Source: Rhodospirillaceae bacterium (GTDB lineage Bacteria; Pseudomonadota; Alphaproteobacteria; GCA-2721365). Taken from it: 64,000 nt of DNA. Both the position numbers and the translations under genes were made by a program. The DNA lies in NCBI GenBank assembly GCA_002721365.1, contig PBKC01000098.1, forward strand, positions 8,993-72,992. Direction: 5' to 3'. Below are positions 6,491 through 64,000 of this stretch, piece by piece (the first letter of the stretch is position 1; the number at the start of each line of letters is the position of its first letter). The notes below the pieces were generated by a model. The model saw nothing but the letters and a program-made list of their open reading frames with translations. It did no database searches and was not told the DNA's origin.

Positions 6491-6595
6491 CGCGTCCGTT
6501 CCGCCACTTGGCCGAAGGCATTTCGGCAATCGCAAGACATCGGGAACGGGGATTCCACGCCTCTAGACGGCGCAGAACCAGGAACGAAGTTCGGT

Positions 6596-6637: not shown

Positions 6638-6708
6638 GTCGCCGTCGACCGCGATACCCAGACAGCGAAGCACGACAAGCAGCGACATTTTGCCCTCAGG
6701 TCGATCTC

Positions 6709-7323: not shown

Positions 7324-7341
7324 GTCTACAGGCCGGTCAGC

Positions 7342-7575: not shown

Positions 7576-7583
7576 CGTGCGTC

Positions 7584-9690: not shown

Positions 9691-9739
9691 GCATCGGTCG
9701 GCCGGACGATACGTCGCAGCGAACCGCAGGGAGGGCGGG

Positions 9740-32705: not shown

Positions 32706-32857
32706 ACCGGGTGGGCCTCATGATCGGCAAATCTTGTTCCGCCTCGAAAGAGGTGTCAGCATTCCGCTTCCTGCGAGAGGCGGCCAATTCCAATGCGGCC
32801 CATGCGGGGCGTGCGATTGCCTCTCCGGACCGCCGGTCATCTCAGAGGCTGCGACGA

Positions 32858-35083: not shown

Positions 35084-35198
35084 GCGGGACAGGCTTCCGG
35101 GCGGCGCTCTGCCGCGCGCGGCGGCAGGCGGACAGGGGCGCTATGTCCGGTTCGCGGCGTCAGGGGCTTAAGACGGTCAAAGGCAGGTAACGGCAGGA

Positions 35199-36749: not shown

Positions 36750-36759
36750 GGCCGGAACC

Positions 36760-46602: not shown

Positions 46603-46868
46603 ACCGGCGTTCGCCAGGCGGCGCCGATGCACCGATCTCAAGCGTCTTTACCGACTTGACGAAAGAGATGCCGTCGGCGGCCTTCTGCGACCGGGATGCC
46701 CCGTGCCATGCGGGTGCTCGACCCTTCGGAGACGCGATGTGGAGGGGGCGGCAGAATCCACCCGACCCGGCGCCGGACAGCGATTGTGTCGATATTTCTT
46801 ACAATTTGGGATGATGCCAGTGGGCATAGTCGCTCGATTTCCGAGGTAATACAAAGAGGTGCACCTTT

Positions 46869-46884
46869 TGGCACGATTTTTGTG
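46869..46884 (+). promoter_or_regulatory. candidate sigma-54 (-24/-12) promoter upstream of the PEP-CTERM gene
   Basis: TGGCACGATTTTTGTG compared with the consensus TGGCACG-N4-TTGCW. The -24 element is perfect, but the -12 element has GT instead of GC. It lies about 160 nt upstream of ATG 47044. Confidence 0.3.
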
Positions 46885-47043
46885 TCGCTTTACCTAAAAT
46901 CGCTCGTCCCGTTGACGAGCTGCGACTTAGGTTTCACCAGCTCACCGCCCATGTTCACGAGATTTTTACGCGATCTCGGGTATGAGTTTGGTAATAGCCT
47001 TCTGGGCATAGCCGCAGGCAATGCGGAAGTTGTGAGGTGTCAG

Positions 47044-47757
47044 ATGAAGAAACTTCTTCGCAAGTATGAATCGTTCGCGGGCGGCATTGCTCACAGCGGG
47101 CGTTCCGCGGCTGTGGCATCCGGCATGGCGGTTGCGATGCTTGTAGGCTTCGCTGGTGAGGCCGAAGCGATCCCGGCGCCGGTCGGTTATCAGAATGATA
47201 CCGGGGTCGAGCTGTTCACGCCCCTTTCCGATCCGCTCATCTCCATCGAGGTCATGGATCTCCTGGGGACGGTCGGCGTCGGTTCGGAATTCGGGTTTTA
47301 TCTTCCCGGCGATCCGAGCAGCCTCTACACCATTTTCGATGCGTCCGACCAGGCGACGCCCGATCAGACGGCACTGATCAGCTTTTCCGGCGGCTTGGTG
47401 GTGGACTACGACGCCAGCGAGGTGCAGACGACGTTCGCGCCGATCTCCAGTGGGTCGATCATCGGCTTTTACATGAAGCTGGCTCCGGGAACGGTCGACG
47501 AGATCACCCTGTATACGGAAGCCGACCTCAATCCTTTCGGGACCGATTTCACGCAGGCCTTCCGGTCCGAGTCGGATACGCCGATTTCGTGGTTCCTGAA
47601 TTTTGAGAACTTCGCCGACGGGACGTCCCTCGGTCAGTACATCGTTGCGCCGATCGCTGCCGCGGTTCCCGAACCGTCCGCCTTGGCGGTGATGGGGATG
47701 GGTGTCCTCGGGCTTGTCGCGATGCGGCGGGGACGTCGGAAGGCAAGCGCCGTCTGA
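47044..47757 (+). CDS. PEP-CTERM sorting-domain secreted protein
   Basis: 237 aa from ATG 47044, with the signal peptide MKKLLRKY...AVAMLVGFAGEAEA. The C-terminus VPEPSALAVMGMGVLGLVAMRRGRRK is the PEP-CTERM motif: PEP, a TM helix and a basic tail. The track start at 46696 runs through low-GC non-coding-looking sequence. Confidence 0.8.
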   Translation: MKKLLRKYESFAGGIAHSGRSAAVASGMAVAMLVGFAGEAEAIPAPVGYQNDTGVELFTPLSDPLISIEVMDLLGTVGVGSEFGFYLPGDPSSLYTIFDASDQATPDQTALISFSGGLVVDYDASEVQTTFAPISSGSIIGFYMKLAPGTVDEITLYTEADLNPFGTDFTQAFRSESDTPISWFLNFENFADGTSLGQYIVAPIAAAVPEPSALAVMGMGVLGLVAMRRGRRKASAV

Positions 47758-49783: not shown

Positions 49784-50932
49784 TCAGCTCCCCTCGGCGA
49801 GGAGGTGCTCGTACAGCGCCTCGTAGGAGGGGCCCAGACGGTCCCAACCGAAGCGCGCGGCATGTGTGCGGCAGCACGCTTCTGTAGCGGGGTCCTTGGC
49901 CAAGGCGACAGCGGTGCGCAAAGCCTCGACCAGCGCATCGACGTCTTGAAGCACGCCGCGCGCCTGTCCGGGATCGACCAGAACACCGATCCGGGAGTCG
50001 TCGACGATGTCGGGAACACCGCCGTGCTGACAACCGACCACCGGCGTTCCACTGGCCAGCGCCTCGGCGAAGACCACTCCGAATGCTTCCCACATGGACG
50101 GCAGGGCCATGACTGTGGCCGACGCCAGATGGCGCGGCAGATCGCTCGGTGGGACAGCGCCATGAAATCGGATGCTGTCCCGAACGTCCGGCGGCACGGC
50201 CGCGACGATCCGTTCGACGTCCCGCGCGGGGGCGTTGCCGCAGAAATGAAGAACGGCATCGGGGAACGAATCCTTCAGACCCGCGAATGCCTCGGCGCAG
50301 GGCAGGGCGCCTTTCCGCGGTTCTCCGACATCGCCCAGGAAGACGATGCTGGGCCAATCGGCCGGGACCGCCTTGGCGGTATTCCGAAAGGACGCCATTT
50401 CAACTGGCAGGGGGATGGTGGTCGCTTTCGCTGCGAAGTCCCGTTCCAGCGTGAAGGCGGCATAGCGGCTGAGGACCAGGATATGGTCGGCATGTTTGAG
50501 CACGGTTCGGAACATCAGCAGTTCGTGCGGCGCGGGGAGGAAGTAGCGGCGGACCGGTATCCCCATGAACTGATGAACCAGCTTGAACTTTGTCGCCGGC
50601 GCCGCGCGGGCGAGCGCCGCGCCGTAAGCATCGAAATGATGCAGGCAGTGCACGACCTCGAAGTCCCGGTGGAGAAGGGTATGCCGGCAGAAGCGGGCGA
50701 AGGCGATGCCGGGGCCCGTCCATCGTCCGAAGTCGAGAGCCTGCCAGCGCTGTCGCCATACAATCGTTTCGATCTCCGGCGGGAACTCGGGTTCGGTACC
50801 GGTCGGTGCCGAAGTGATGACCGAGACCTCATGTCCGCGCCTGTGAAGATAGGCCGCGAGGTCGTGCAGCAGACGCTCGGAGCCGCGTCGGACCTGCGGC
50901 CAGCAGAAAGGGTTCGTCAGCGCAATGCGCAT
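49784..50932 (-). CDS. family 4 (GT-B) glycosyltransferase, paralog of the GT4 half of 40466..42607
   Basis: 382 aa. The N-terminus IALTNPFCWPQVRRGSERLLHDL matches IAIANPFCWPQVRRGSERLLNDL of the fusion protein. ALPSMWEAFGVVFAEALASGTPVVG. Confidence 0.85.
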   Translation of the reverse strand: MRIALTNPFCWPQVRRGSERLLHDLAAYLHRRGHEVSVITSAPTGTEPEFPPEIETIVWRQRWQALDFGRWTGPGIAFARFCRHTLLHRDFEVVHCLHHFDAYGAALARAAPATKFKLVHQFMGIPVRRYFLPAPHELLMFRTVLKHADHILVLSRYAAFTLERDFAAKATTIPLPVEMASFRNTAKAVPADWPSIVFLGDVGEPRKGALPCAEAFAGLKDSFPDAVLHFCGNAPARDVERIVAAVPPDVRDSIRFHGAVPPSDLPRHLASATVMALPSMWEAFGVVFAEALASGTPVVGCQHGGVPDIVDDSRIGVLVDPGQARGVLQDVDALVEALRTAVALAKDPATEACCRTHAARFGWDRLGPSYEALYEHLLAEGS

Positions 50933-51003
50933 GGCATGACGGCGCGCTCGACATCGATGGTCGGCGACCAGTCGGGCCTTTGCGCCCTTGGGGGAAGGAC
51001 GAC

Positions 51004-51978
51004 ATGAAGACCGCTCTGATCCTTGGCGTCTCGGGACAGGATGGCGCTTATCTTGCCGAGTTCCTGCTCGAGAAGGGCTACAACGTCTATGGGACGTCGC
51101 GAGACGCCGAGCTTGCCCGGTTCGGCAATCTCCGTGCGCTCGGTATTCGAGACCGGGTCACCTGCCATTCGGCCAGTCCGACGGACTTTCGGAGCATCTT
51201 CCAGGTCATTCGTCAGGTCGAACCGGACGAGATCTACAATCTGGCCGGGCAGACTTCGGTCGGGCTTTCCTTCGCGCAGCCGGTCGAAACGATGGAGAGC
51301 ATCTCGCTCGGTACGCTCAACGTGCTCGAAGCGGTGCGGATGCTGGACAAGCCGATCCGTCTTTACAACGCCGGCTCCGGTGAATGCTTCGGCAATACGG
51401 CCGGAAATCCGGCGACCGAGCTCACCGCATTCACGCCGCGCAGCCCCTACGCGGTCGCCAAGGCGGCGGCGGTGTGGACCGTCAGCAACTATCGCGAGGC
51501 GTACCATCTGTTCGCCTGCTCGGGGATTCTGTTCAACCACGAATCCCCCTTGCGGCCCGACCGCTTCGTGACGCGGAAGATCGTCAAGGGAGCCGCCGAA
51601 ATCGCGCTCGGTCGGCGCGAGCGGCTGCAGGTGGGCAATCTCGGCGTGCGCCGGGATTGGGGATGGGCACCGGAATATGTCGATGCGATGTGGCGCATGC
51701 TTCAGGCCGATACGGCCGAGGACTTCGTGATCGCGACCGGCAAGGACCATGCCCTCGAAGACTTCGCGCGTCTGGCCTTCGAGGCTTTCGATCTGGACTG
51801 GCGGGACTATGTCGACGTGTCGCCGACCCTTTTCCGGCCTACCGATATCGAGGTCGGTGTCGGCGATGCCGGCAAGGCCGAGAGGCTGCTGGGATGGCGG
51901 GCCGAGCTCGATCTGGCCGAGATCGTCCGGCGCATGGCGGAAGCGGAGCGAGACAAACTTCTGGCGGAAGAGAGCTGA
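51004..51978 (+). CDS. GDP-mannose 4,6-dehydratase family protein, short form (second paralog; possible dehydratase/reductase)
   Basis: 324 aa from ATG 51004. ALILGVSGQDGAYLAEFLLEKGYNVYG, SPYAVAKAAA (Y-x3-K), [20 protein letters not shown] and NLGVRRDWGWAPEYVDAMW. Confidence 0.8.
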   Translation: MKTALILGVSGQDGAYLAEFLLEKGYNVYGTSRDAELARFGNLRALGIRDRVTCHSASPTDFRSIFQVIRQVEPDEIYNLAGQTSVGLSFAQPVETMESISLGTLNVLEAVRMLDKPIRLYNAGSGECFGNTAGNPATELTAFTPRSPYAVAKAAAVWTVSNYREAYHLFACSGILFNHESPLRPDRFVTRKIVKGAAEIALGRRERLQVGNLGVRRDWGWAPEYVDAMWRMLQADTAEDFVIATGKDHALEDFARLAFEAFDLDWRDYVDVSPTLFRPTDIEVGVGDAGKAERLLGWRAELDLAEIVRRMAEAERDKLLAEES

Positions 51979-52068
51979 CCGCGCGGCTGTAAGCCTGTCG
52001 AGGCCTCCCCCAGGGCAGCGCGACGGCGGGCACGAACAACCGGACGCCGCCGCCGCGAGGCTTTGCAC

Positions 52069-53136: not shown

Positions 53137-53422
53137 GATATGTCCCCACGAGGAAAGATGAACGGACCGCTCATGTCATCACTGGCCGTCCGAGACCTGC
53201 ATGGCGCTGCTGTCGAGACTACCAAGGTTTCGGCCGTGTGTGAGCCTGTCCGAACTGCCGGTTGCCGGAATCCCCTCGCACGTTTTCCTCTCATTCTTGT
53301 CAGTGTAATGACGCTCACGCATCATGCTACTGGGTCTGTGCGGCCTGCAGGCGGGTCCTAGGTAATATGGTATATGTTTGCCGAGGGATCGCCATCCCTC
53401 GTTTCGCAGAGGGACGCTGATC

Positions 53423-56400
53423 ATGACTGTGCCGCCGATTCCGGCCGACGACGTTATCTCGCTCGGGGATCCCGATTCCGACGTCGTGGTCATCGACCCG
53501 GCAGCCCTCCTTTTCAATGACGTCGATCCCGATGGCGATACGCTTTTCCTTGAAGCCGTCGACGGTACGAATCTGATCAATGCGACGGCGGAGATCGATG
53601 CCGATGGTAACGTCGTCGTTACCGCCATCGACTCGTCCGCACCGATCGGCGGCTCCTTCACTTATGTCGTTTCGGATAGAAACAGTGCCGTTCGTACAGC
53701 CGTCGCGAGTTTCGGAACCGGCGGCATAGAGTATACCGATATTTCGCCGGGCACGACCGGTGCCGACAGTCTTCTCGGGTCGGATGCGCCATCCGATCTT
53801 TCCGGTGGCCAGGGTGATGATCTCGTTTTCGGTGGTACTGGAGACGATAGCCTGTCGGGCGGCGCCGACGACGACACGATTCAGGGTGGCAGCGGTGCCG
53901 ACGAAATCCTGGGCGGGGACGGTCAGGACAGCCTCTCCGGCGACGAAGGCGCCGATACGCTCGACGGCGGCGCGGGCAACGACATTCTGTCCGATGTCGA
54001 CGGGGGAACGATCTCCGGCGGGGAAGGCGACGACCATCTGATCGTCGGCGTTCTGCCCGAAGAGCACGAGACGGTGGTCGATGGGGGGCTTGGCGAAGAC
54101 ACCCTCGACCTGGACCTTACGCCGGAGCAGTTCCTCAACGCCGCAACTCTTCGTGAGCTTTCGGCGCTCAACGATTTCATCACGGACTCGGCCGACTCGG
54201 CGGTCGATGACGGTGCGACCTTTACCGTGAACGGTTTGGCGCTGACGGTGAGCAATGTCGAAGCGCTTACCGTCAATGGTGATCCCTTCGCGGTCCCCGA
54301 CGAGTCGACCTGGCTCGAAACGGTCTTCGTCGATCCGACCGGCGACGGGATCGGCGACGGTTCGTTCGAGAATCCCTTCACGTCCTGGGATTTCGTCACG
54401 TTCGAAGCGGGCAAGACCTATCTGCAGAAGGCCGATACCGTCTTCGAAGACAGCCTGTTCGTCGACGTTCAGGCCACCGCCGATCATCCGATCTACATCG
54501 GCTCCTATGGCGAGGGGGCACCGCCGACCATCTCCGGCTCGGTGATCTTTTCCGGGGCGGCGAACGTCGAATTTCACGACTTCACCGTCACCGACTCCGA
54601 CATCGCCGGCGTCTTGATTACGGACGGCAGCCAGTCGATCAGCGTGACCGACTCGACCATCACGCGCAGCGCCGTCGGCATCGAGATCACCGATGGCTCC
54701 GGTGGCAGCAGCACCGGCCACAAGCTGCTCAACAACATTATCCACTCGAACGACACCAGCGGAATTTCCGTCGTCGACGTCAGTGCGGCAGCGGGCGAGG
54801 AAACAGTCATTGCGGACAATACGATCTACCGCAATGGCATGCATGGCGTCGGTATTATTGGAAATTACTACGTTATTGAGAACAACGAGATCCACAATAA
54901 CGGTATTAGTGGAATTATTGGGACAAGCGGAATCCATCTTTTTGCACAAAGCAATGAAGTTGCTGCGGGTGATTTCAATATAATTCGATACAACACCGTT
55001 TCCCATCAGAATGACTCTGATAGTAATGATGGAAACGGGATTCAAGCCGATCAATATTCGAACGATAACCAGATTTACGGGAATATCGTTTTTGCCAATG
55101 CCGGACCAGGTCTCAATTTATACGATGCGACCAACAATCTTGTTTATGACAATATTGCATACGGAAACTCCGTAGACCTATTCAACACGCACGCCAACAA
55201 GGCGGAAATGACGGTCGGCAGCCTGGGCGGAGAGCTGTTCGACCTGACGTTCGGGAACCAAATTCACGACAATATCTTCTACGCGATCGACAGCGACGTC
55301 GCGGCCTTCCTGGTCGACATTCCGTCGTCGGACGAAGTCAACGCGATCGGCGACAATCAGTTCTTCCACGAAGCCGGCGGTGACCTCTGGCGGTGGGGGA
55401 CCTTGTCCGGCACCGACATCGAGGAATGGAACAGTCTTGCGGAAGGCGGGGGTGACGATGTCGTCTTCGATCCCGTGGCCGCCGGATTCGTTCCACCGGA
55501 AGAACCGCCCGCCTACATGCTGGACGGAAGTTTCGAGGTCCATGCCCCTCAGTTCACGGTCGTCGATCCCGACAGCACCAATCTCGTTTTCGGGACCGCT
55601 GCCGGCGATCTCTATGTCGGTGGTGACTTCCGCGACATCCTGGTCGGGCGCGGCGGCAACGACACCATCCTTGCCGAAGGCGGCCATGACTGGCTGATCG
55701 GCAACGAAGGCGACGACAGTCTGGTCGGCGGCGACGGTCTCGACGAAGCCTGGGGCGGGGTGGGCGCCGATACGCTGGTCGGTGGGGCCGGGACGGATCT
55801 GCTATTCGGCGGCAACGACGCCGATTCGATCCTCGGCGGTGACGGACGCGACGACCTTGCCGGTGGTTTCGGCGACGACACGATTTTCGGCGGTGCCGAT
55901 ATCGACTCGATCGACGGCGGCGTCGGAAATGACTGGCTGACCGGCGGTGACGGTGAGGATGTCGTCCATGGCCGTGACGACAACGACTTCATCGACGAGA
56001 GCGGCGACCTCGTTTCGGCCAACAAGCTGTTCGGCGGCACCGGCGACGACACCATCATCGGCGGTGGCGGCAATGACCAGCTCGCCGGGAGCGAGGGCAA
56101 CGACTCTCTGATCGGCGGTGCCGGCGATGATCAGGTCAATGCCGACGAGGGCATCGACGTGGTCTTCGGCGGTGAGGGCAGCGATCTGGTCGATGGTGGC
56201 GACGGCGACGACGTGGTCCAGGGCGAGGCGGGCAGCGACACCTTGCGCGGCGGTGCCGGCAACGATTCCATCCTTGGCGGGGCCGATAACGACACGCTGG
56301 TCGGGAACGAAGGCGACGACACGCTGATCGGCGGCGACGGCGCCGATATTCTCGATGTGAGCGACGACACCGAGGGCAACAACCTTCTTCAGGGCGATGC

Positions 56401-59400
56401 CGGCAACGACCAGCTCACCGGCGGTGGCGGTGCCGACACCATGGATGGCGGTGCCGATGACGACACCCTGAGCGGTGCCGAGGGTGCGGACAGTCTCTCG
56501 GGCGGCGACGGCAACGACACGCTTATCGGCGAGGCCGGTGCGGATACGGCTATCGGCGGTGCCGGGTCCGATCTCATCGAAGGCGGTGACGATGCGGACT
56601 CCATCCTTGGCGGACTCGGTGATGACACCGGCCAGGGTGGTACCGGCAACGACATCGTCATGGGTGAGGATGGCGCCGACCTGCTGATCGGTGGGATCGG
56701 CGATGACACGCTGCTGGGCGGCGAAGGCGACGATGTCCTCGACGAGGGCGACGATGCCGCCGGCGCGAACCTCCTCGAAGGTGGCGCGGGCTTCGACAAG
56801 CTCACGGGTGGCGGCGGCGATGACACGCTGGACGGTGGTCTCGACGGCGATACGCTGACCGGTGGCGGTGGAGCGGACAGCCTGGTCGGAGGCGATGGCC
56901 AGGATGCTCTGTTCGGATCGGATGGTGCCGATACCGTAGTTGGGGGCGACGACGCCGATACGGTCGATGGCGGGGCCGGTGACGACTCGGTCGTCGGTGG
57001 CTTGGGCGATGACACCGGCCAGGGCGGTGCCGGCAACGACCTCGTTTTGGGCGGGGACGGAGCAGACCTGCTGATCGGGGGGCTCGACGACGATACCCTC
57101 GAAGGCGGCGCCGGGGACGATGTCCTCAACGAAGACGAAGACCCCTCCGGCAATAACCTTCTCCTCGGCGGAGCAGGCTTTGACGAACTCACCGGCGGTG
57201 GTGGTGCCGATACCCTGGATGGCGGTGCCGACGACGATACGCTGACCGGCGGTGGCGGCGCGGATAGCCTGCTCGGGGCCGATGGGAACGACGTTCTGAT
57301 CGCCGGAGCCGGTGTGGACACGGTCATCGGCGGCGTTGGCAACGATCTCGCCGAAGGCGGTGATGACGACGACTCGATCGTCGGTGGCCTTGGCGACGAT
57401 ACCGGCCAGGGCGGCACCGGCAACGACATCGTCATGGGCGAGGATGGTGCCGACCTGCTGATCGGCGGGATCGGCGACGACACGCTGCTGGGCGGCGAAG
57501 GCGACGATGTCCTCGACGAGGGTGACGACACGGCCGGCGCGAACCTTCTCCGGGGTGAAGCCGGATCGGACAAGCTCACCGGCGGCGGCGGCAGCGACAC
57601 GCTGGAAGGCGGTCTCGACAACGACACCCTGACCGGCGGCGGTGGGACGGACAGCTTGATGGGCGGTGACGGGCAGGACGCTGTGTTCGGTTCCGCCGGT
57701 GCCGATACCGTCCTCGGCGGCGATGGAGCCGATACGGTCGACGGTGGCGATGGCGACGATTCCGTGGTCGGGGGGCTCGGCGACGACACCGGCCAGGGCG
57801 GTGCGGGGAACGATATCGTATTCGGCGAGGACGGCGCCGATCTTCTGATCGGCGGTCTCGGCGATGACACCCTGATGGGCGGTGTCGGCGACGACGTCAT
57901 CAGTGACGACGAGGATCCGTCGGGTGCCAACCTTCTCCTGGGTGAAGAGGGCTTCGACGACCTCACGGGTGGCGGGGGCGACGATACGCTCGACGGTGGC
58001 GTTGACGACGACACCCTGACCGGCGGTGGTGGCGCCGACAGCTTGCTGGGATCGGACGGCGACGACGTTCTGATTGCCGGTGCCGGGGCCGATACCTTGA
58101 TCGGGGGCGCGGGCAACGACCTCGGCGAAGGCGGCGATGGCGACGACTCGATCGTCGGTGGCGTTGGCGACGATACGGGCCAAGGCGGCGCCGGCAACGA
58201 CGTGGTGTCGGGTGAGGACGGCGCGGATCTGCTGATCGGCGGGATCGGTGACGACACCCTTCTCGGCGGCGATGGCGATGACACCCTCGACGAGGGGGAT
58301 GACGCGGTCGGATCCAACCTGCTCGAAGGCGGGGCCGGCTCCGACAAGCTTACCGGTGGCGGTGGCGACGATACACTGGAGGGCGGCCTCGACGCGGACA
58401 CCCTGACCGGTGCCGGCGGTGCGGATAGCCTGATGGGCGGTGACGGCCAGGATGCCCTGTTCGGGTCCGCTGGCGCCGATACCGTCGATGGTGGTGACGG
58501 CGCCGATACCGTCGATGGCGGCGATGGGGCCGACTCCCTTTCGGGAGGTCTTGGCGACGATACCGGCCAGGGCGGTGCCGGCAACGATCTCGTCTCAGGT
58601 GACGAGGGCAATGACCTTCTGATCGGCGGCCTCGACGACGATACCCTTATGGGCGGCATCGGCGACGACATCCTCGACGAAGGCGAGGACGCCGCCGGAG
58701 CCAATCTCCTTCTCGGCGACGTCGGCTTCGATCAGCTCACGGGCGGCGGGGGCAACGACACGCTCGATGGTGGCGCCGACGACGACACTCTGACCGGCGG
58801 TGGCGGCGACGACAGCTTGCTCGGGGGCGACGGCAATGACGTCATGATCGCCGGGGCGGGCGCCGATACGCTGATCGGCGGAGCGGGGAACGATCTCGCC
58901 GAGGCGGGAGACGGCGACGATTCGGTTGTCGGGGGGCTCGGTGCCGATACCGGGCAGGGCGGCGCGGGCAACGATATTGTTTCCGGCAATGGGGGCAACG
59001 ACCTCCTGTTCGGCGGCATTGGCGACGATACGCTGATCGGCGGCGTCGGCGATGACGTGCTCGATGAAAGCGGGGACCCGGCCGGCGCCAATCTGCTGCA
59101 GGGTGGAGCCGGCCTCGATCAGCTCACCGGCGGCGGTGGCAGCGACACGCTCAATGGCGGTGATGACGCCGATACCCTGACGGGTGGCGCCGGAACCGAC
59201 AGTCTGCTCGGTGGAGCGGGCAATGATCAGCTCTCCGGCAATATCGGCGACGATACCTTGGAGGGCGGCGACGGCGCCGACTTCGGTTCCGGCGGCGAAG
59301 GGGCGGACCTTATCGTCGGCGGTCTCGGCAACGACACCGGTGACGGCGGCACCGGCAATGACACGATCATCGGCGAAGAAGGCAACGATCTTCTGATCGG

Positions 59401-62400
59401 CGGCGACGGTGACGACTCCCTCTCGGGCGGTCTCGAGGGCGACACGCTCCAGGGTGGTGTCGGCGACGATCAGCTTTCGGGCGATGAGGGCGACGACAAC
59501 CTTGCCGGCGGAGCGGGATCGGACACGCTGCTTGGCGGTGACGGCGACGACGTCATGGACGAACTTGCCGATCTCACCGGCGCCAACCTCTTCGACGGTG
59601 GTGATGGCGCCGACAGCCTCTATGGCGGCGGTGGCGCGGAAGTCTTCGCCGGCGGTGCCGGGGTGGACTTCATCGTCGCCGGAGCGGGGGGCGACAGTGT
59701 CTCGGGGGGTGCCGACAGCGACGTCATCGACGGTGGTGCGGGCGACGACACGATGTCGGGCGATGCCGGCGGTGATCGCCTTCTCGGCGGTGACGGCGTG
59801 GACATCCTGGATGAATCCGCCGATCTCGATGGCGGAAACGAACTGTTCGGCCAGGCCGGGAACGACAGCCTTCTCGGTGGTAGCGGCGCGGACATGCTGG
59901 ACGGCGGCGACGATGCCGACTCCCTTAGCGGCGGTGCCGGGACCGACCAACTGATCGGCGGCGCTGGCGACGACACCGTCGACGGCGGCGCCGATGCCGA
60001 CACGCTCGATGGCGGCGCGGGTGAGGACAGTCTGATCGGCGGCGGCGGAGGCGACGTTCTGTCGGCGGGCGCCGGCAACGACACCGTGTCCGCCGGAGAC
60101 GGCAACGATACCGCCGATGGCGGCGACGGCGCCGACCTCGTCGATGGCGATGCGGGCGACGACCTGCTGATCGGTGGTCTTGGCGACGATACCCTGCGCG
60201 GCGGCGTGGGGAACGACCAGATCGACGAAGGGGCGGATGCTACCGGCGCCAATCTGCTGGTCGGTGATGCCGGGACCGACCGGCTCACCGGTGGCGGTGG
60301 CAACGATACCCTGGATGGCGGCCTCGACGCAGACACTCTTTCGGGCGCCGGCGGGCAGGACAGCCTGCTTGGTGGCGACGGAGCGGACGTGCTCGACGGC
60401 GGGGTTGGCGACGATACCGCGGCAGGCGGTGCCGGCAACGATACCGCTTCGGGCGGGAGCGGCAACGACCTGCTGTCAGGCGACGACGGCGACGATCTTC
60501 TGTTCGGCGATGCCGGCGACGATACGCTCGATGGTGGTGACGGCGCGGATTCGCTCGATGAGGGCGCCGACCTCACCGGCTCGAACCTCCTTCTGGGCGG
60601 GGCCGGTTCCGATCCCCTGACCGGCGGGGCCGCAGCCGACACCCTGGACGGCGGTACCGAGAACGACACCCTGAGCGGCGGTGGCGGCAACGACAGCTTG
60701 CTCGGCAGCGATGGTGACGACGTTCTGATTGCCGCCGACGGAAACGACACTGTCTTGGGCGGCATCGGCAATGACTTTGCGGCCGGCGACAGCGGCGACG
60801 ATTCGGTCTCCGGCGGCGCTGGCAACGACACCGTCGACGGCGGTGCGGGTAACGACGTCGTTTCCGGCGACGACGGAGCCGATCTTCTGCTGGGTCGGGA
60901 CGGGGACGACACCCTTCGCGGCGGTGCCGGTGCGGACATCCTCGACGAAAGCAGCGACGCGGCGGGGTTCAATCTTCTCGAAGGCGGTGACGGCGCCGAC
61001 AACCTGACCGGCGGTGGCGGGGCCGATACCCTCGACGGCGGTATCGACGACGATACCCTGAACGGCGCTGAGGGAGCCAACAGCCTGCTGGGCGGTGCCG
61101 GCAACGACAACCTGGTCGGCGGGTCGGGTGACGATACGGTCGTCGGCGGCGCCGGCGACGACACCGGCCAAGGCGGCGAAGGCACCGATCTGGTTACCGG
61201 CGGTGACGGCGCGGATCTTCTGACCGGCGGTTCGGGCAACGACGAGTTGCGGGGCGGCGCCGGCGACGATGTGCTGGACGAAAGCGCCGACGCGACCGGC
61301 GACAATCTTCTCGTGGGCGATGAGGGCCTCGACCGGCTTACCGGCGGCAGTGGCAACGACACGCTCGATGGCGGTCTCGATGCCGACACCCTCACTGGCG
61401 GCGGTGGCGGCGACAGCCTGCTCGGCGGAGATGGTGCCGACATTATGTCGGGCGGTATCGGCGACGATACGGTCGAGGGCGGCTCCGGCAACGACACCGG
61501 CGATGGCGGTTCCGGTAACGACCTGCTGCGCGGCGATGATGGTTCGGATGTGCTGGTGGGCGGCACAGGCTCCGATTCGCTCTTCGGCGGTGCGGATGCT
61601 GATGTCCTTGACGACTCGACCGATGCTCTTGGATTCAACCTGCTCGATGGCGGGACCGGCGACGACAGTCTGTTCGGTGGCGGCGCGGCCGATACGCTTC
61701 TCGGCGGAGACGGCGCGGATTTCGTCATTGCCGGGCTGGGCGCGGACAGTGCCTTCGGCGGCGCCGGTGACGACGTCATAGATGGTGGCGGCGGAAACGA
61801 CGTCCTGTCCGGTGGAGCCGGAGCCGACCGTGTCATGGCCGGTGACGGCAACGACACCGTGGACGAGTCGGCCGATCTCGACGGCGGCAACGAAGTCTAT
61901 GGCCAAGCCGGTGACGACAGCCTGCTGGGCGGCGCTGGCGCCGACATGCTGGACGGTGGCGCCGGTGCCGATGATCTCTCAGGCGGTGATGGCGCCGATA
62001 CGCTTCGCGGCGGCGCGGATGACGATCGGGTACAGGGCGGCATCGGCGATGATGTTCTCGCCGGTAATGCAGGCAACGACACCGTGCTCGGCGGCGACGG
62101 CAATGACCTCGTCGACGAGTCCGATGATCCGACCGGCAGCAACCTCCTGGAAGGTGGGGCCGGGCTTGACAGCCTGATCGGCGGAGGTGGCGCCGACCAG
62201 ATCGATGGCGGCGCAGACGCCGACTTCCTGCGTGGCGGCGGAGGCAACGATACCGCTGACGGCGGACTTGGCGACGACATGGTCCAGGGCGAGGACGGTG
62301 ACGACCTCCTGGTCGGCGGTGCCGGGTCGGACACGCTGCTGGGTGGCTCCGGCAACGACGTTCTCGACGAACTGGTCGATACCGGCGGCGGCAACTTCAT

Positions 62401-64000
62401 GGACGGCGGTGACGGGGCCGACAGCCTGTATGGCGGTGCCGGTACCGAGATTCTCGCGGGCGGTGCCGGGAACGACTACGTCGTCGCGGGTGCCGGAAAC
62501 GACAGCGCTCAGGGCGGGATCGGCGACGACACCGTCGATGGCGGCGAAGGCGACGACTTCGTCACGGGCAATGAAGGAAACGACGTGATCGCCGGCAGCG
62601 GCGGTTCCGACATCCTGATGGGGGGTGTCGGCGACGACATCCTCGATGAAAGCGGCGACGGGGCCGGGGCCAATCTGCTGATGGGCGAGGCCGGCTTCGA
62701 CCAGCTCACCGGGGGTGGCGGCAATGACACCCTTGATGGTGGCGACGATGCGGACACCCTCTCCGGCGGCGGCGGCCGGGACAGCTTGCTCGGTGGTGCC
62801 GGAAGCGACGTCCTTTCGGGCGAGGCCGGTGACGACACCGTTGAGGGCGGCATCGGTGCCGACACCGCCGACGGCGGTCTGGGCAACGACCAGCTCTCGG
62901 GTGGCGACGGCGCCGATGTGCTGGTCGGCGGTGGCGGCGATGACACGCTAGTCGGCGGTGCCGACGGCGACCTGCTTGACGAGACGGCGGACGCGACCGG
63001 CGCGAACCGCCTCGACGGCGGGGCCGGGGCCGACAGCCTGTTCGGCGGTGGTGGCGGGGAGATCCTGCTTGGCGGCGACGGCAACGATTTCATCTCGGCC
63101 GGGCTGGGCGCCGACAGTGTGACCGGTGATGCCGGCGACGACGTCATCCATGGGGAGGACGGTAACGATACGCTGAGTGGCGGCCTGGGCGCCGACCGGT
63201 TGCTCGCCGGAGCAGGGGATGACCTCGTCGACGAGACGGCGGACACAAGCGACGGGAACGAGCTGTTCGGCGATGCCGGCAACGACAGCTTGTTCGGCGG
63301 CAGCGGAGCGGATCTGCTCGAAGGCGGCGTCGGCCTCGATCAACTCGACGGTGGAGGCGGCAACGATACCCTGTCCGGCGGTGCCGATTCGGATGTGCTC
63401 GATGGCAACGCGGGTGATGACGTGCTCGTGGGCGATTCCGGGAGCGACACCTTACGGGGCGGTGACGGCGACGATCTGATCAATGAGGGGGCCGATGCCG
63501 CTGGCGCCAACCTGCTGGAAGGCGGCAGCGGCTTCGACAACCTCATCGGTGGCGGCGGCAACGACACGATGTTCGGCGGCCTCGACGGCGATACCCTTGC
63601 CGGCGGCGCTGGCGGAGACTTCCTGGATGGCGAAGGCGGCGCGGACTCGATTCTCGGCGGGATCGGCGACGATACGGCGCAGGGCGGTGACGGTGACGAC
63701 CGGATATTCGGTGAAGCCGGTGCCGACTTGCTGGTCGGCGGCGCGGGCAACGACTTTGTCGACAGCGGTGCCGACGACGACCTCGTCCTCGGCGGCAGCG
63801 GTGACGACGTGCTCGTTCTGGGCGACGGCGCCGATCTCGCACTCGGCGATGATGGCGCCGATTCGCTCACGGGTGGTGTCGGCGACGACACCATGGTCGG
63901 CGGTCAGGGCGTCGACACGGTTTCCGGCGGTGACGGTAACGACGTCATCGACGAATCGGCCGATACCGACGCAGGTAATCTCCTGTCGGGTGACGCCGGT
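53423..64000 (+). CDS. giant secreted RTX-repeat protein with a right-handed beta-helix (pectate-lyase/AlgE A-module-like) domain; 5' partial, continues past the window end
   Basis: The frame of 53423 is open from the TAA at 53363-53365 to base 64000, a span of 3,526 codons from the ATG. The ATG is preceded by GAGGGA. The ORF is missing from the track, presumably because it has no stop in the window; no ORF in this frame is listed after 53423. My translation gives MTVPPIPADD...NDVDPDGDTLFLEAVDG (cadherin-like). A short GGxGxD block follows at about 53760-54010. PbH1-type beta-helix turns follow at about 54500-55200 (IIHSNDTSGISVV, NTIYRNGMHGVGIIG, NNEIHNNGISGII, NQIYGNIVFANAGPGLNLY, NNLVYDNIAYGN). 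From about 55600 there is a continuous run of GGxGxDxL nonapeptides to the window end. Confidence 0.88.
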   Translation, partial: MTVPPIPADDVISLGDPDSDVVVIDPAALLFNDVDPDGDTLFLEAVDGTNLINATAEIDADGNVVVTAIDSSAPIGGSFTYVVSDRNSAVRTAVASFGTGGIEYTDISPGTTGADSLLGSDAPSDLSGGQGDDLVFGGTGDDSLSGGADDDTIQGGSGADEILGGDGQDSLSGDEGADTLDGGAGNDILSDVDGGTISGGEGDDHLIVGVLPEEHETVVDGGLGEDTLDLDLTPEQFLNAATLRELSALNDFITDSADSAVDDGATFTVNGLALTVSNVEALTVNGDPFAVPDESTWLETVFVDPTGDGIGDGSFENPFTSWDFVTFEAGKTYLQKADTVFEDSLFVDVQATADHPIYIGSYGEGAPPTISGSVIFSGAANVEFHDFTVTDSDIAGVLITDGSQSISVTDSTITRSAVGIEITDGSGGSSTGHKLLNNIIHSNDTSGISVVDVSAAAGEETVIADNTIYRNGMHGVGIIGNYYVIENNEIHNNGISGIIGTSGIHLFAQSNEVAAGDFNIIRYNTVSHQNDSDSNDGNGIQADQYSNDNQIYGNIVFANAGPGLNLYDATNNLVYDNIAYGNSVDLFNTHANKAEMTVGSLGGELFDLTFGNQIHDNIFYAIDSDVAAFLVDIPSSDEVNAIGDNQFFHEAGGDLWRWGTLSGTDIEEWNSLAEGGGDDVVFDPVAAGFVPPEEPPAYMLDGSFEVHAPQFTVVDPDSTNLVFGTAAGDLYVGGDFRDILVGRGGNDTILAEGGHDWLIGNEGDDSLVGGDGLDEAWGGVGADTLVGGAGTDLLFGGNDADSILGGDGRDDLAGGFGDDTIFGGADIDSIDGGVGNDWLTGGDGEDVVHGRDDNDFIDESGDLVSANKLFGGTGDDTIIGGGGNDQLAGSEGNDSLIGGAGDDQVNADEGIDVVFGGEGSDLVDGGDGDDVVQGEAGSDTLRGGAGNDSILGGADNDTLVGNEGDDTLIGGDGADILDVSDDTEGNNLLQGDAGNDQLTGGGGADTMDGGADDDTLSGAEGADSLSGGDGNDTLIGEAGADTAIGGAGSDLIEGGDDADSILGGLGDDTGQGGTGNDIVMGEDGADLLIGGIGDDTLLGGEGDDVLDEGDDAAGANLLEGGAGFDKLTGGGGDDTLDGGLDGDTLTGGGGADSLVGGDGQDALFGSDGADTVVGGDDADTVDGGAGDDSVVGGLGDDTGQGGAGNDLVLGGDGADLLIGGLDDDTLEGGAGDDVLNEDEDPSGNNLLLGGAGFDELTGGGGADTLDGGADDDTLTGGGGADSLLGADGNDVLIAGAGVDTVIGGVGNDLAEGGDDDDSIVGGLGDDTGQGGTGNDIVMGEDGADLLIGGIGDDTLLGGEGDDVLDEGDDTAGANLLRGEAGSDKLTGGGGSDTLEGGLDNDTLTGGGGTDSLMGGDGQDAVFGSAGADTVLGGDGADTVDGGDGDDSVVGGLGDDTGQGGAGNDIVFGEDGADLLIGGLGDDTLMGGVGDDVISDDEDPSGANLLLGEEGFDDLTGGGGDDTLDGGVDDDTLTGGGGADSLLGSDGDDVLIAGAGADTLIGGAGNDLGEGGDGDDSIVGGVGDDTGQGGAGNDVVSGEDGADLLIGGIGDDTLLGGDGDDTLDEGDDAVGSNLLEGGAGSDKLTGGGGDDTLEGGLDADTLTGAGGADSLMGGDGQDALFGSAGADTVDGGDGADTVDGGDGADSLSGGLGDDTGQGGAGNDLVSGDEGNDLLIGGLDDDTLMGGIGDDILDEGEDAAGANLLLGDVGFDQLTGGGGNDTLDGGADDDTLTGGGGDDSLLGGDGNDVMIAGAGADTLIGGAGNDLAEAGDGDDSVVGGLGADTGQGGAGNDIVSGNGGNDLLFGGIGDDTLIGGVGDDVLDESGDPAGANLLQGGAGLDQLTGGGGSDTLNGGDDADTLTGGAGTDSLLGGAGNDQLSGNIGDDTLEGGDGADFGSGGEGADLIVGGLGNDTGDGGTGNDTIIGEEGNDLLIGGDGDDSLSGGLEGDTLQGGVGDDQLSGDEGDDNLAGGAGSDTLLGGDGDDVMDELADLTGANLFDGGDGADSLYGGGGAEVFAGGAGVDFIVAGAGGDSVSGGADSDVIDGGAGDDTMSGDAGGDRLLGGDGVDILDESADLDGGNELFGQAGNDSLLGGSGADMLDGGDDADSLSGGAGTDQLIGGAGDDTVDGGADADTLDGGAGEDSLIGGGGGDVLSAGAGNDTVSAGDGNDTADGGDGADLVDGDAGDDLLIGGLGDDTLRGGVGNDQIDEGADATGANLLVGDAGTDRLTGGGGNDTLDGGLDADTLSGAGGQDSLLGGDGADVLDGGVGDDTAAGGAGNDTASGGSGNDLLSGDDGDDLLFGDAGDDTLDGGDGADSLDEGADLTGSNLLLGGAGSDPLTGGAAADTLDGGTENDTLSGGGGNDSLLGSDGDDVLIAADGNDTVLGGIGNDFAAGDSGDDSVSGGAGNDTVDGGAGNDVVSGDDGADLLLGRDGDDTLRGGAGADILDESSDAAGFNLLEGGDGADNLTGGGGADTLDGGIDDDTLNGAEGANSLLGGAGNDNLVGGSGDDTVVGGAGDDTGQGGEGTDLVTGGDGADLLTGGSGNDELRGGAGDDVLDESADATGDNLLVGDEGLDRLTGGSGNDTLDGGLDADTLTGGGGGDSLLGGDGADIMSGGIGDDTVEGGSGNDTGDGGSGNDLLRGDDGSDVLVGGTGSDSLFGGADADVLDDSTDALGFNLLDGGTGDDSLFGGGAADTLLGGDGADFVIAGLGADSAFGGAGDDVIDGGGGNDVLSGGAGADRVMAGDGNDTVDESADLDGGNEVYGQAGDDSLLGGAGADMLDGGAGADDLSGGDGADTLRGGADDDRVQGGIGDDVLAGNAGNDTVLGGDGNDLVDESDDPTGSNLLEGGAGLDSLIGGGGADQIDGGADADFLRGGGGNDTADGGLGDDMVQGEDGDDLLVGGAGSDTLLGGSGNDVLDELVDTGGGNFMDGGDGADSLYGGAGTEILAGGAGNDYVVAGAGNDSAQGGIGDDTVDGGEGDDFVTGNEGNDVIAGSGGSDILMGGVGDDILDESGDGAGANLLMGEAGFDQLTGGGGNDTLDGGDDADTLSGGGGRDSLLGGAGSDVLSGEAGDDTVEGGIGADTADGGLGNDQLSGGDGADVLVGGGGDDTLVGGADGDLLDETADATGANRLDGGAGADSLFGGGGGEILLGGDGNDFISAGLGADSVTGDAGDDVIHGEDGNDTLSGGLGADRLLAGAGDDLVDETADTSDGNELFGDAGNDSLFGGSGADLLEGGVGLDQLDGGGGNDTLSGGADSDVLDGNAGDDVLVGDSGSDTLRGGDGDDLINEGADAAGANLLEGGSGFDNLIGGGGNDTMFGGLDGDTLAGGAGGDFLDGEGGADSILGGIGDDTAQGGDGDDRIFGEAGADLLVGGAGNDFVDSGADDDLVLGGSGDDVLVLGDGADLALGDDGADSLTGGVGDDTMVGGQGVDTVSGGDGNDVIDESADTDAGNLLSGDAG
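56264..59746 (+). repeat. in-phase higher-order tandem repeat inside the RTX gene: 387-nt (129-codon) unit, alternating as a 774-nt two-unit super-repeat
   Basis: The Asp codon of the anchor motif GG(A/T)GND falls at 56264, 56651, 57038, 57425, 57812, 58199, 58586, 58973 and 59360, exactly 387 nt apart by my coordinate count. Copies 774 nt apart are the most alike. Confidence 0.85.

Follow-up and report, generated by a model that had tools for sequence, protein, structure and literature searches.

The question raised by this locus is whether the very long open reading frame within an exopolysaccharide (EPS) gene cluster encodes a real protein and, if it does, how that protein might act on the polymer made next to it. 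The frame lies in a 64,000-nt stretch of contig PBKC01000098.1 (the window). The host belongs to a lineage of marine Rhodospirillaceae that is present in several ocean metagenomes, and neighbouring genes carry the accessions MBL29357, MBL29376, and MBL29402, labelled "Rhodospirillaceae bacterium". An earlier note had placed the giant gene beside a polysaccharide locus, and the gene families identify that locus as one of Wzx/Wzy type. It encodes sugar-nucleotide enzymes, methyltransferases, a Wzz/tyrosine-kinase pair, Wzx, an MBOAT protein, Wzy_C, a GH51-like protein, GT2 and GT4 glycosyltransferases, Poly_export, a WcaJ-like priming transferase, fcl, and gmd, together with a flocculation-type PEP-CTERM protein. 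The GH51-like protein (32711-35083) is another candidate glycosidase already in the locus. A nucleotide-sugar 6-dehydrogenase located 7 kb downstream is TviB-like (UDP-GlcNAc) and not AlgD-like, and alginate-synthase-type families were not reported among the neighbours of the giant gene. The features of the region are as follows.

22820-53136, strand not specified: Wzx/Wzy-type exopolysaccharide locus (gene families, public gene calls)
53409-53414, plus strand: Shine-Dalgarno-like GAGGGA, 8 nt before the start codon (read from the sequence)
53423-64000, plus strand: giant gene, first 3526 of its 3686 codons, stop outside the window (translation, public contigs, SNPs)
53432-53710, plus strand: cadherin-like/bacterial Ig domain, aa 4-96 (Pfam Big_9, E 1e-8; Cadherin_5, E 3e-6)
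53720-54088, plus strand: first short RTX block, aa ~100-222, with eight GGxGxD-like cores (Pfam)
54089-54298, plus strand: linker, aa ~223-292, conserved in relatives with an N-terminal extension
54299-55552, plus strand: right-handed parallel beta-helix, aa ~293-710, putative polysaccharide-active catalytic module (AlphaFold, Foldseek, Pfam)
54935-55051, plus strand: family signature and candidate active site (conservation in 157 members, model)
55646-64000 and continuing past the window, plus strand: main RTX nonapeptide array, aa 742 to ~3609 (Pfam HemolysinCabind)
56312-59211, plus strand: 387-nt super-repeats (129 aa, 14 nonapeptides plus 3), 7.5 copies (Tandem Repeats Finder)

Direct translation of the plus strand from ATG 53423 to base 64000 gives 3,526 codons without a stop, and the codons at the window end read ...DESADTDAGNLLSGDAG. 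The frame, its length, its last codons, and the GAGGGA ribosome-binding site are all as the earlier note had reported. An in-frame TAA (53363-53365) lies 60 nt 5' of the ATG. The description of the frame as open-ended holds up to base 64000 and no further: the JGI public metagenome contig MDTD01061975.1 (L005), which overlaps window positions 62742-64000 with one mismatch, extends the frame by 160 codons through a non-repeat C-terminal tail to a stop that ends at window-equivalent position 64483, only 483 nt past the window. The complete protein, joined from the window and this contig, is 3,686 aa (350 kDa, pI 4.05). A product of 3,686 aa was called independently in three ENA assemblies, adjoining the same gmd gene, and a start at 53423 reproduces this public gene call. 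The mechanical ORF list gives long minus-strand ORFs and omits the giant frame, as had been remarked, because the frame runs off the window end. One assembly (L001) matches window positions 42069-63136 at 99.9% without gaps, and two others (L002 and L003) differ by only 21-23 substitutions each in position-by-position comparison, in the same register; the repeat copy number is therefore reproducible among the assemblies that support the gene, all of which are short-read metagenome assemblies. In total, four other assemblies agree with the giant gene, free of indels over the stretch that each covers.

A frame of this kind could also arise by misassembly of a repeat, from a pseudogene, or by chance in GC-rich repetitive DNA, with true transcription on the minus strand. 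The repeat region contains antisense ORFs as long as 793 aa, codon-position GC in the plus frame is indistinguishable from that in one antisense frame, and the support comes wholly from short reads. We nevertheless regard this explanation as highly improbable, since five assemblies are concordant in sequence and in the 3,686-aa length, the frame stays open for 11 kb, and its domains match curated families. Strain polymorphism points the same way. The strains differ at 12-15 SNPs within the giant gene, of which 9-12 are synonymous third-position changes in the plus frame (10 synonymous to 3 nonsynonymous against L001). Synonymous SNPs at plus-strand third positions are first positions of the matching antisense frame, and the plus frame is thus favoured over the antisense ORFs. 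We conclude that the giant gene is real, that its full product is 3,686 aa, and that purifying selection acts on the plus frame. Convincing promoter or terminator signals were not found at either end of the gene. A leader hairpin sequestering the Shine-Dalgarno sequence was considered and rejected; its stability was no greater than that of shuffled controls, and it had no Rfam match.

The protein consists, in order, of a cadherin-like domain, a short RTX block, a right-handed beta-helix, an RTX region of ~2,870 aa, and an acidic tail of ~110 aa. Pfam confirms the order of the first four, which had been proposed from the sequence alone. The N-terminal cadherin-like domain, which also has a weak NCBIfam match to tandem-95 repeats, is a candidate carbohydrate- or Ca2+-binding module. 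The linker that precedes the beta-helix is covered in five representatives (P0124, P0125, P0127, P0128, and P0170) that align from query residue 1-2, equivalent to aa 225. The N-terminus, MTVPPIPADDVISLGDPD, has no hydrophobic h-region on inspection, and hence no signal peptide is seen. In the Pfam annotation there is one Big_9/Cadherin_5 domain only, with no LapA-type retention module or tandem Ig-like extender, and genes for LapG and LapD were not seen within the window.

RTX repeats account for ~78% of the protein (8.6 kb of coding sequence). HemolysinCabind matches it at E 7.5e-61 over aa 1-1000 and at E 0 over aa 1001-3526 (85 stretches), with about 100 matched stretches overall to the window end. 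The full protein contains 178 GGxGx[DN] matches and 211 census-type predicted Ca2+ sites, mostly spaced 9 or 18 residues apart, in ~318 nonapeptide-length units without real linkers; there are 691 Asp and no Cys. The main array is built of runs of 9n+3 residues (84, 93, 111, 129, 138, and 165), with one 12-residue variant turn, DExxDxxGxNLL, per run. The super-repeats share 71% nucleotide matches, and their in-register protein windows are 66-82% identical, which suggests an old, diverged duplication. AlphaFold predicts a continuous, unbroken beta-roll for this region (pLDDT 93.7, pTM 0.85), to which the nearest solved structures are the RTX blocks of CyaA, with modules of the RsaA S-layer protein and the MpAFP adhesin also among the nearest rolls; the AlgE6 R1 module is a local structural match.

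Public data contain many RTX proteins longer than 3,000 aa, and giants of 2,000-3,760 aa are likewise common. More than 100 environmental giants in that size range are 29-45% identical to the present protein over the repeats and share with it thousands of residues of GGxGxD nonapeptides, an acidic composition, and a C-terminus of type I secretion system (T1SS) type. Size alone is therefore not novel; the protein stands out by how many repeats it has and by how dense and regular they are. Among 118 RTX giants retrieved with a 2,150-aa query from this protein, a search that did not bring up the protein itself, the median number of predicted Ca2+ sites is 95 and the maximum 126, against 211 here, and the site density of the present protein is the highest. 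Neither a Beta_helix domain nor the DExxDxxGxNLL punctuation occurs in any of the 118. The earlier claim that the RTX region far exceeds its precedents stands when it is set against AlgE, ExsH, and the Ply proteins.

An acidic stretch of ~110 aa free of repeats closes the protein. It contains no Lys, Arg, or Cys, and its final residues, DNISV, are like those of RTX-fused relatives (DYQFV, DFIFV, or DILI). Curated C-terminal T1SS target-domain models in NCBIfam do not match the tail at E<=0.1, and its composition resembles that typical of type I secretion substrates. ABC transporter, membrane-fusion, and TolC-like genes are found neither in window positions 1-53422 nor in the 10.4 kb downstream. 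Genes for PrsDE substrates are dispersed in the genome, away from the T1SS genes (PMC9298526), and the lack of linkage here is unsurprising for this reason. Of the earlier expectation that both a secretion signal and T1SS genes would lie beyond the window, the first part agrees with the T1SS-like tail and the missing signal peptide, while the second does not hold for the 10.4 kb downstream. Export probably proceeds in a single step through an unlinked T1SS.

The beta-helix is the part of the protein most informative about function. Pfam Beta_helix matches at E 5e-14, the Beta_helix/NosD stretch covers about aa 375-584, and the AlphaFold model is confident (pLDDT 91.8, pTM 0.91). Foldseek matches in the PDB include GH136, the AlgE4/6 A-modules, PL6, PL9, AlgG, and tailspikes. 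Viral beta-helix and tailspike proteins are matched as well, and the top of the list consists of carbohydrate-active beta-helices only. The domain thus has the similarity to carbohydrate-active enzymes that the earlier reading implied, and this extends to the AlgE A-modules (2pyg, 2pyh, and 5lw3; E 2e-8 to 4e-7, target-normalised TM 0.60-0.65). GH136 is the top match both by sequence profile (E 6e-10) and by Foldseek (E 9.5e-9, 15% identity), with the profile match spanning the N-terminal cap alone (profile positions 26-97). AlgG is a weak profile match, and PL6, PL9, and PL31 (PsAly) are among the profile and fold matches. Sequence-level PDB alignments are restricted to the N-terminal cap and generic PbH1 coils, and the structural matches have 10-16% identity and TM 0.4-0.65. 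The likeness stops at the fold, which does not discriminate a hydrolase from a lyase or an epimerase.

NCBIfam has no specific family for this domain. It belongs to an uncharacterised family with the signature SGIH...DGNGIQxD, for which a search of 50%-identity representatives returned 526 cluster representatives at E<=1e-3, the cluster of the giant protein not being among them. Members occur in Methylobacterium, Variovorax, Ideonella, Haematobacter, Acetobacteraceae, and many uncultured lineages; the only full-length relative in the plasmid collection is from Haematobacter. Among 157 members, the only near-invariant ionisable residues are His505 (87%; 54935-54937, in GTSGIH), Asp536 (97%; 55028-55030), and Asp543 (99%; 55049-55051), the two Asp standing seven residues apart in DGNGIQAD, and all three are present in the giant protein. 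Conserved Lys or Tyr residues were not found among these members, and the only partly conserved Arg is Arg522 (70%). In the AlphaFold model, the three residues are at or within six-residue strands of two successive coils, and the regular spacing of the two signature strands suggests that they share one sheet. At position 560, where 80% of the family have Asp, the giant protein has Ala. Substitution D560A as a mark of an inactive enzyme was rejected; the position varies (H/S/Q/G/A) across the RTX-fused clade.

Stand-alone members of the family carry Sec, Tat, or lipoprotein signals, and most sampled RTX-fused members are without them. Family members are predicted to be exported by a signal peptide or an RTX fusion, in every case to a site outside the cytoplasm, and their genes are usually found in Wzx/Wzy loci. 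Of six homologues sampled, five are encoded within such loci beside glycosyltransferases, and the Roseomonas homologue P0007 is outside any EPS locus. On a larger scale, EPS genes occur within 10 kb in 30 of 48 long GTDB loci of the family, against 0-3 for control genes.

From the directly observed gene, its length, domain order, fold, family conservation pattern, and genomic association, we infer an activity, a substrate, an export route, and a role for the roll, and modestly favour a secreted, Ca2+-dependent glycanase that acts on the polymer of its own locus and is exported by a T1SS. In Ca2+-rich seawater, the RTX units would bind Ca2+ at the predicted sites and fold into a long, near-continuous beta-roll; such folding would power export, keep it unidirectional, and yield a stiff rod. 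Most likely, the beta-helix would bind the polymer that the locus makes in a groove with His505, Asp536, and Asp543 along its walls, and would cleave it, most likely as a two-carboxylate glycosidase. As a result, EPS would be trimmed or remodelled outside the cell, comparable to the action of PlyA/PlyB, ExsH, and WceF. The earlier note had left the choice between a T1SS-secreted, Ca2+-dependent enzyme and an adhesin; the evidence leans toward the enzyme, with the AlgE analogy narrowed to fold and architecture and without adjacent T1SS genes in the stretches covered. An RTX region of ~2,870 aa is unexplained by an enzymatic role, and this was counted against the glycanase, as were the GH51-like candidate in the locus, the position of P0007, the lack of T1SS genes in the flanking DNA covered, the tail unmatched by curated models, the fold-level similarity, and Ala at position 560, although that residue varies in the RTX-fused clade.

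The same domains could instead make a Ca2+-dependent surface, matrix, or adhesin protein, in which the roll is the working part, whether as rod, S-layer-like scaffold, or Ca2+-mediated cross-linker of the acidic EPS, and the beta-helix and cadherin-like modules tether the polymer as lectins without cleaving it. This is possible, if not what we expect. It would account for a protein that is mostly RTX, with a site count and density above those of all 118 giants compared and a rigid, continuous roll in the AlphaFold prediction. Modules of the RsaA S-layer and MpAFP adhesin proteins are among the nearest solved rolls, the flocculation-type PEP-CTERM protein is encoded in the locus, and in Rhizobium the cadherin-like Ra domains act as lectins for EPS (PMC9298526). 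However, the near-invariant His/Asp/Asp set is kept, and it is common to stand-alone periplasmic members of ~450 aa that could not be scaffolds; moreover, a LapA-type retention module and an Ig-repeat extender are missing, and there is a single cadherin-like domain. Structural and enzymatic roles are compatible and not mutually exclusive.

If the beta-helix is catalytic, its chemistry could differ from hydrolysis. The catalytic motif of AlgE is YG[F/I]DPH[D/E], and that of AlgG is DPHD. A secreted, AlgE-like C5-epimerase or epimerase/lyase acting on EPS uronic acids, with the RTX region as multiplied R-modules, is suggested by the A-modules of AlgE4 and AlgE6 among the best structural matches (from E 2e-8), the weak AlgG profile match, the common order of catalytic beta-helix and then RTX, and the 6-dehydrogenase, which makes uronic acids plausible. 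However, the DPH[DE] motif is absent from the giant protein and 11 relatives, which argues against an AlgE-type epimerase, and the family has no conserved Tyr. In addition, GH136 and lyases score equally well, the locus is of Wzx/Wzy type without an alginate-synthase-type neighbour, and the dehydrogenase is not of AlgD type; we consider epimerisation quite unlikely. Beta-elimination by a PL6/PL9/PL31-like lyase is also unlikely. Those families are among the profile and fold matches, Ca2+ is abundant, and the EPS may be acidic, but the catalysts of such lyases are Lys, Arg, or Tyr (Tyr184/Lys221 in PsAly; PMC6796002), and in this family Lys and Tyr are not conserved and R522 reaches 70% only.

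Each R-module of an AlgE protein has a handful of RTX motifs, and the total is a few dozen at most, compared with ~318 units in the giant protein. The analogy to Azotobacter vinelandii AlgE1-7 drawn in the earlier note is upheld for fold and architecture, with an N-terminal right-handed beta-helix followed by Ca2+-binding RTX modules and extracellular, Ca2+-dependent action on a polysaccharide, which is also proposed here. It does not extend to the DPH(D/E) motif, to sequence (13-14% identity), or to an alginate-type locus.

The Ply glycanases are far smaller than the giant protein. PlyA, PlyB, and PlyC of Rhizobium leguminosarum are T1SS-secreted EPS glycanases with a cadherin-like domain and dispersed genes (PMC9298526), and their catalytic region, which is pectate-lyase/polygalacturonase/PL6-like, trims the cell's own EPS extracellularly (PMC9298526, PMC3034196). 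By domain type as described, the giant protein resembles them in having a beta-helix region and a cadherin-like domain, and its T1SS genes would likewise be unlinked. The description of the Ply proteins is that of non-RTX proteins (PMC3034196); their cadherin-like domain (Ra/CHDL) is C-terminal, whereas in the giant protein it is N-terminal and the long RTX region follows. Like WceF and Erwinia AmsF, the gene is a beta-helix gene embedded in a Wzx/Wzy EPS cluster. WceF of Pantoea stewartii is a Tat-exported beta-helix glycanase with a tailspike-like fold that acts on the polymer of its own cluster and controls the chain length (PMC7949094). Stand-alone Tat/Sec members of the family closely match this logic; WceF itself has no RTX and is not among the 50 Foldseek matches listed. 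The likeness to the GH136 lacto-N-biosidases LnbX and ErLnb136 lies in the N-terminal cap and the fold, and GH136 enzymes have an exo-acting pocket and require a partner subunit or domain (PMC8106489). CyaA has about 40 RTX repeats in five blocks (PMC3034196), against 211 sites in a linker-free array here. Unlike the adhesins LapA, SiiE, and MpIBP, the protein is built mostly of nonapeptide RTX and not of Ig repeats, and it has no retention module.

T1SS-secreted, Ca2+-dependent, polysaccharide-active proteins are an established class, and the present protein does not overturn current understanding of them. What sets it apart is an exceptionally long and regular RTX region, joined to a probable polymer-cutting beta-helix. 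More speculatively, the whole RTX region may form one continuous, Ca2+-stiffened beta-roll of ~159 turns and ~75 nm that acts as a ruler or spacer or as an EPS cross-linker, and the beta-helix may found a new CAZy family; we consider this combination doubtful. If true, no solved or characterised beta-roll would come near it in length, and a rigid ruler would keep the EPS-cleaving beta-helix at a set distance inside the capsule or matrix, fixing polymer length or layer thickness; in the alternative, a Ca2+-loaded rod would cross-link acidic EPS.

The beta-helix family is widespread, unnamed, and tied to EPS loci, and with a clear candidate active site it is a target in the search for a new glycanase, lyase, or CAZy family in EPS chain-length control. 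The giant protein is an extreme natural RTX expansion, linker-free and punctuated by the 9n+3 rule, and it could be used to probe the length limit of beta-rolls and the T1SS export of very long substrates powered by Ca2+ folding. In the ocean, it may affect how particles aggregate and how Ca2+-EPS gels behave.

The reading frame that starts at ATG 53423 (+) is a complete and real gene. As the earlier note had described, 53423-64000 reads without a stop for 3,526 codons (terminal residues ...DESADTDAGNLLSGDAG), and a Shine-Dalgarno-like ribosome binding site, GAGGGA, lies at 53409-53414, 5' of this ATG, which is the first after the upstream in-frame stop TAA (53363-53365). The frame is missing from the mechanical ORF list solely because it runs past the window end; over the repeats the list holds broken antisense ORFs of at most 793 aa. 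It is open-ended only within the window: an exact-string scan of JGI metagenomes using the window's final bases retrieved contig MDTD01061975.1, which overlaps window 62742-64000 with one mismatch, and adds 160 in-frame codons before a stop whose last base is window-equivalent 64483. The full product (window plus this contig) is 3,686 aa, identical to the independent gene-call length. Through an exact look-up of the neighboring gmd (GDP-mannose 4,6-dehydratase), this locus was recovered from three independent ENA assemblies, one from Tara Oceans, each with a 3,686-residue gene call beside gmd. One of these ENA contigs aligns to window 42069-63136 without gaps, at 99.9% identity. Repeat copy number is reproducible between assemblies, because they agree on length and sequence without gaps, and short reads can resolve the repeats because the units have diverged (71% between 387-nt units). 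The coding strand is better supported by SNPs than by codon-position GC, which alone did not discriminate the + frame from one of the antisense frames: of the 12-15 SNPs between strains within the gene, 9-12 fall at third positions of the + frame and are synonymous.

Only three amino-acid differences separate the window strain from three other assemblies:
D343G, aa 343, window 54450, near the start of the beta-helix domain
P2398T, aa 2398, window 60614, RTX array
N2553D, aa 2553, window 61079, RTX array

The 5' leader (53383-53414) contains a perfect 7-bp hairpin (GAGGGAT-cgcc-ATCCCTC), the 3' arm of which can alternatively pair with the identical Shine-Dalgarno sequence GAGGGA at 53409-53414; the minimum-free-energy fold sequesters that sequence. 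The leader fold did not exceed shuffled controls in stability (z = -0.42), and it had no Rfam match.

The predicted protein (350 kDa, pI 4.05) contains 691 Asp, 8 Lys, and no Cys. Pfam agrees with the domain order proposed from sequence, cadherin-like, first RTX block, beta-helix, and RTX to the window end:
aa 4-96, cadherin-like/bacterial Ig domain (Pfam Big_9/Cadherin_5)
aa ~100-222, first RTX block
aa ~223-292, linker, common to some relatives
aa ~293-710, right-handed beta-helix (Pfam Beta_helix/NosD match at about aa 375-584)
aa 742-3609, main RTX array (Pfam HemolysinCabind to the window end)
last ~110 aa, acidic, non-repeat C-terminal tail ending ...SFSVLSDNISV

GC content is 0.586 over the beta-helix domain (window 54001-56000) versus 0.68-0.69 over the RTX array (56001-64000); the array also has a strongly positive GC skew (+0.12 to +0.15). 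The shift arises because the repeats use GGN/GAY codons, rather than from foreign origin.

Beta-helix domains related to this one form an uncharacterized family. Its best relatives share just 35-45% identity and are named in their sources only as "right-handed parallel beta-helix repeat-containing protein." An exhaustive representative search gave 526 cluster representatives (E ≤ 1e-3), many of them stand-alone proteins of 400-500 aa. The domain was modeled with high confidence from a 30-sequence alignment (pLDDT 91.8, pTM 0.91). The carbohydrate-active likeness expected of it is present at the fold level, where Foldseek matches in the PDB had 10-16% identity and TM 0.4-0.65 overall:
GH136 lacto-N-biosidases (E 9.5e-9)
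AlgE4 and AlgE6 A-modules (E 2e-8, target-normalized TM 0.60-0.65)
one phage tailspike
PL6 and PL9 lyases, alginate epimerase/lyase, and AlgG

Viral library matches of comparable significance were to beta-helix, tailspike, and putative depolymerase proteins, while profile-to-PDB sequence matches were confined to the N-terminal cap and generic coils. Among 157 family members, the only near-invariant ionizable residues are His505 (87%), Asp536 (97%), and Asp543 (99%), all within the signature GTSGIH...DGNGIQxD; none of the conserved positions is Lys or Tyr. In the model these three lie at or inside six-residue strands of two consecutive coils, and the partly conserved His474, Asp560 (Ala here), and Glu595 lie at or just before the matching strands of adjacent coils. 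Because strand-residue spacing is regular, the strands bearing His505, Asp536, and Asp543 probably share one sheet, with the residues forming a stripe typical of a substrate groove. Ala560 was rejected as a mark of inactivation, since position 560 varies within the RTX-fused clade.

The gene lies beside a Wzx/Wzy-type exopolysaccharide (EPS) locus at window 22.8-53.1 kb, the gene content of which confirms the proposed polysaccharide setting:
sugar-nucleotide enzymes and methyltransferases
Wzz/EpsF-like protein and tyrosine kinase
Wzx, GH51-like protein, MBOAT, and Wzy_C
GT2 and GT4 glycosyltransferases and Poly_export
PepA-like PEP-CTERM protein
WcaJ-like priming transferase, fcl, and gmd

The giant gene and gmd are divergent, and its 3' neighbor is a convergent NAD-dependent epimerase/dehydratase, with a TviB-like nucleotide-sugar dehydrogenase 7 kb beyond. 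Positions 1-8433 of the JGI contig (window-equivalent ~66.5-75 kb) encode Fe-S (Fer4_22) and NiFe-hydrogenase-like/complex-I 49-kDa-like proteins and a TviB-like UDP-GlcNAc 6-dehydrogenase; the hydrogenase-like genes break up an apparently continuing sugar-nucleotide region. The GH51-like protein (32711-35083, +; 790 aa), between Wzx and MBOAT, has an arabinofuranosidase-like domain at aa 277-728 (NCBIfam ArfA, E 7.5e-39, under the curated cutoff) and is a second candidate polymer-trimming enzyme. The PEP-CTERM protein (46696-47757, +) weakly resembles flocculation protein PepA, and the chain-length-determinant and tyrosine-kinase pair (29134-31316, +) shows weak similarity to EpsF/EpsG and XrtA-associated models. 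No exosortase could be recognized within the window. A 330-aa ORF (36760-37752) had no family matches. The 383-aa ORF at 50917-52068 (-) is spurious, as GC3, Pfam, and public gene calls support the overlapping fcl-like GDP-fucose synthase gene (50980-51978, +). Together, fcl and gmd point to a polymer containing fucose. The stretch 32000-40000, which coincides with the genes for the membrane proteins Wzx, MBOAT, and Wzy, has a strongly negative AT skew (-0.13 to -0.22).

Association with EPS loci extends to the family. Five of six sampled homologues lie inside Wzx/Wzy loci, four of them immediately upstream of a GT4 gene; the exception is a Roseomonas homologue outside any such locus. Among 78 GTDB loci from species representatives, 48 were at least 15 kb, and 30 of these had a homologue of an EPS gene (glycosyltransferase or Wzy/Wzz/Wzx/Poly_export/priming-transferase) within 10 kb by tblastn, which is insensitive; five unrelated control genes each matched 0-3 loci. 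Two or three paralogous family genes occur together in some EPS loci (GCA_036704275.1 contig, 3785-11362; Haematobacter plasmid pOT1-2, 11767-15655), and in the former two of three paralogues (778 and 601 aa) are fused to RTX. This pattern suggests that RTX tails were recruited repeatedly within the family.

The RTX region is exceptional in density. By the definitions of the 2010 RTX census, the whole protein has 211 predicted non-overlapping Ca2+ sites, spaced mainly 9 or 18 residues apart; the highest count in that census, about 200, belonged to a protein of 4,334 aa (PMC3034196). The array is punctuated by the motif DExxDxxGxNLL (16 occurrences), and inter-motif runs are 84, 93, 111, 129, 138, or 165 aa. 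Every run is 9n+3, and therefore the "blocks" are nonapeptide runs plus one 12-residue variant turn, without true linkers. An AlphaFold model of three 129-aa super-repeats, aligned with in-register internal copies, formed a roll (pLDDT 93.7, pTM 0.85) with unbroken 9-residue strand periodicity and the motif seen only as slightly lengthened turns; the two weakest of the five models reached 77 and 69, and idealized repeats may make AlphaFold over-confident. Among matches listed, the closest solved structures were CyaA RTX blocks, MpAFP, lipase and serralysin rolls, RsaA, and AlgE6 R1, all with low query-normalized TM (≤0.34) and none aligning over the entire 386-residue model. Extrapolated from the model, the whole array would have about 159 turns and be roughly 75 nm long.

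Within its family the protein is an extreme outlier. The longest representative is 1,828 aa (versus 3,686 here); for ORFs in GTDB genomes that carry the domain, the median length is near 500 aa and the longest has 1,845 aa, with five or more RTX cores (at most 58) in just 6 of 78. Size alone is not unusual for RTX proteins at large: a 2,150-aa query matched over 100 proteins, 2,059-3,762 aa in length, in metagenomes and in isolates (e.g., Chromobacterium, Phenylobacterium, Nitrospira, Chitinimonas, Caulobacter), in a comparison that appears to cover proteins up to 1.75x query length. Census-type sites in the 118 listed giants number 95 at the median and never exceed 126 (≤4.3 per 100 aa, versus 5.7 here), and each giant has 0-1 copies of DExxDxxGxNLL; none has a Beta_helix domain.

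Stand-alone family members start with Sec, Tat, or lipoprotein signals, whereas most RTX-fused members sampled lack N-terminal signals and have tails resembling those of type I secretion system (T1SS) substrates (e.g., DYQFV, DFIFV, DILI); the family is therefore always extracytoplasmic, via two routes. The earlier note's reading held for the gene, the EPS locus, and the carbohydrate-active fold; its expectation of adjacent T1SS genes did not, as ABC transporter, HlyD-type, and TolC-type genes are absent from the whole window and 10.4 kb downstream. None were seen near the loci of RTX-fused homologues either. Substrate genes of the multi-substrate PrsDE system are dispersed (PMC9298526), and by analogy distant T1SS genes would be normal for such systems.

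We somewhat favor a protein that would be exported by a T1SS and folded by Ca2+, with N-terminal cadherin-like and beta-helix modules that would bind and cut the EPS of the surrounding locus. ExsH would be a functional analogue. PlyA/PlyB/PlyC (PMC9298526) and WceF (PMC7949094) offer further functional analogies. A chiefly structural role, as a Ca2+/EPS matrix or surface protein whose N-terminal modules act like lectins, is rather unlikely. Polysaccharide lyase activity is improbable, as the family has no conserved Lys, Tyr, or Arg, unlike PsAly, whose catalysts are Tyr184/Lys221 (PMC6796002). AlgE is similar in architecture, but the protein is not an AlgE family member; an AlgE-like epimerase is very improbable, since the AlgE/AlgG catalytic motif DPH(D/E) is missing from it and 11 relatives. 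The conserved carboxylate pair, lacking a partner Lys, Tyr, or Arg, would favor a glycosidase over a lyase or AlgE-type epimerase. An artefact is hardly credible. Cleavage of the local EPS stays our preferred, conditional reading, and what makes the protein noteworthy is its union of an uncharacterized EPS-locus beta-helix family with a record-dense, apparently continuous RTX roll.
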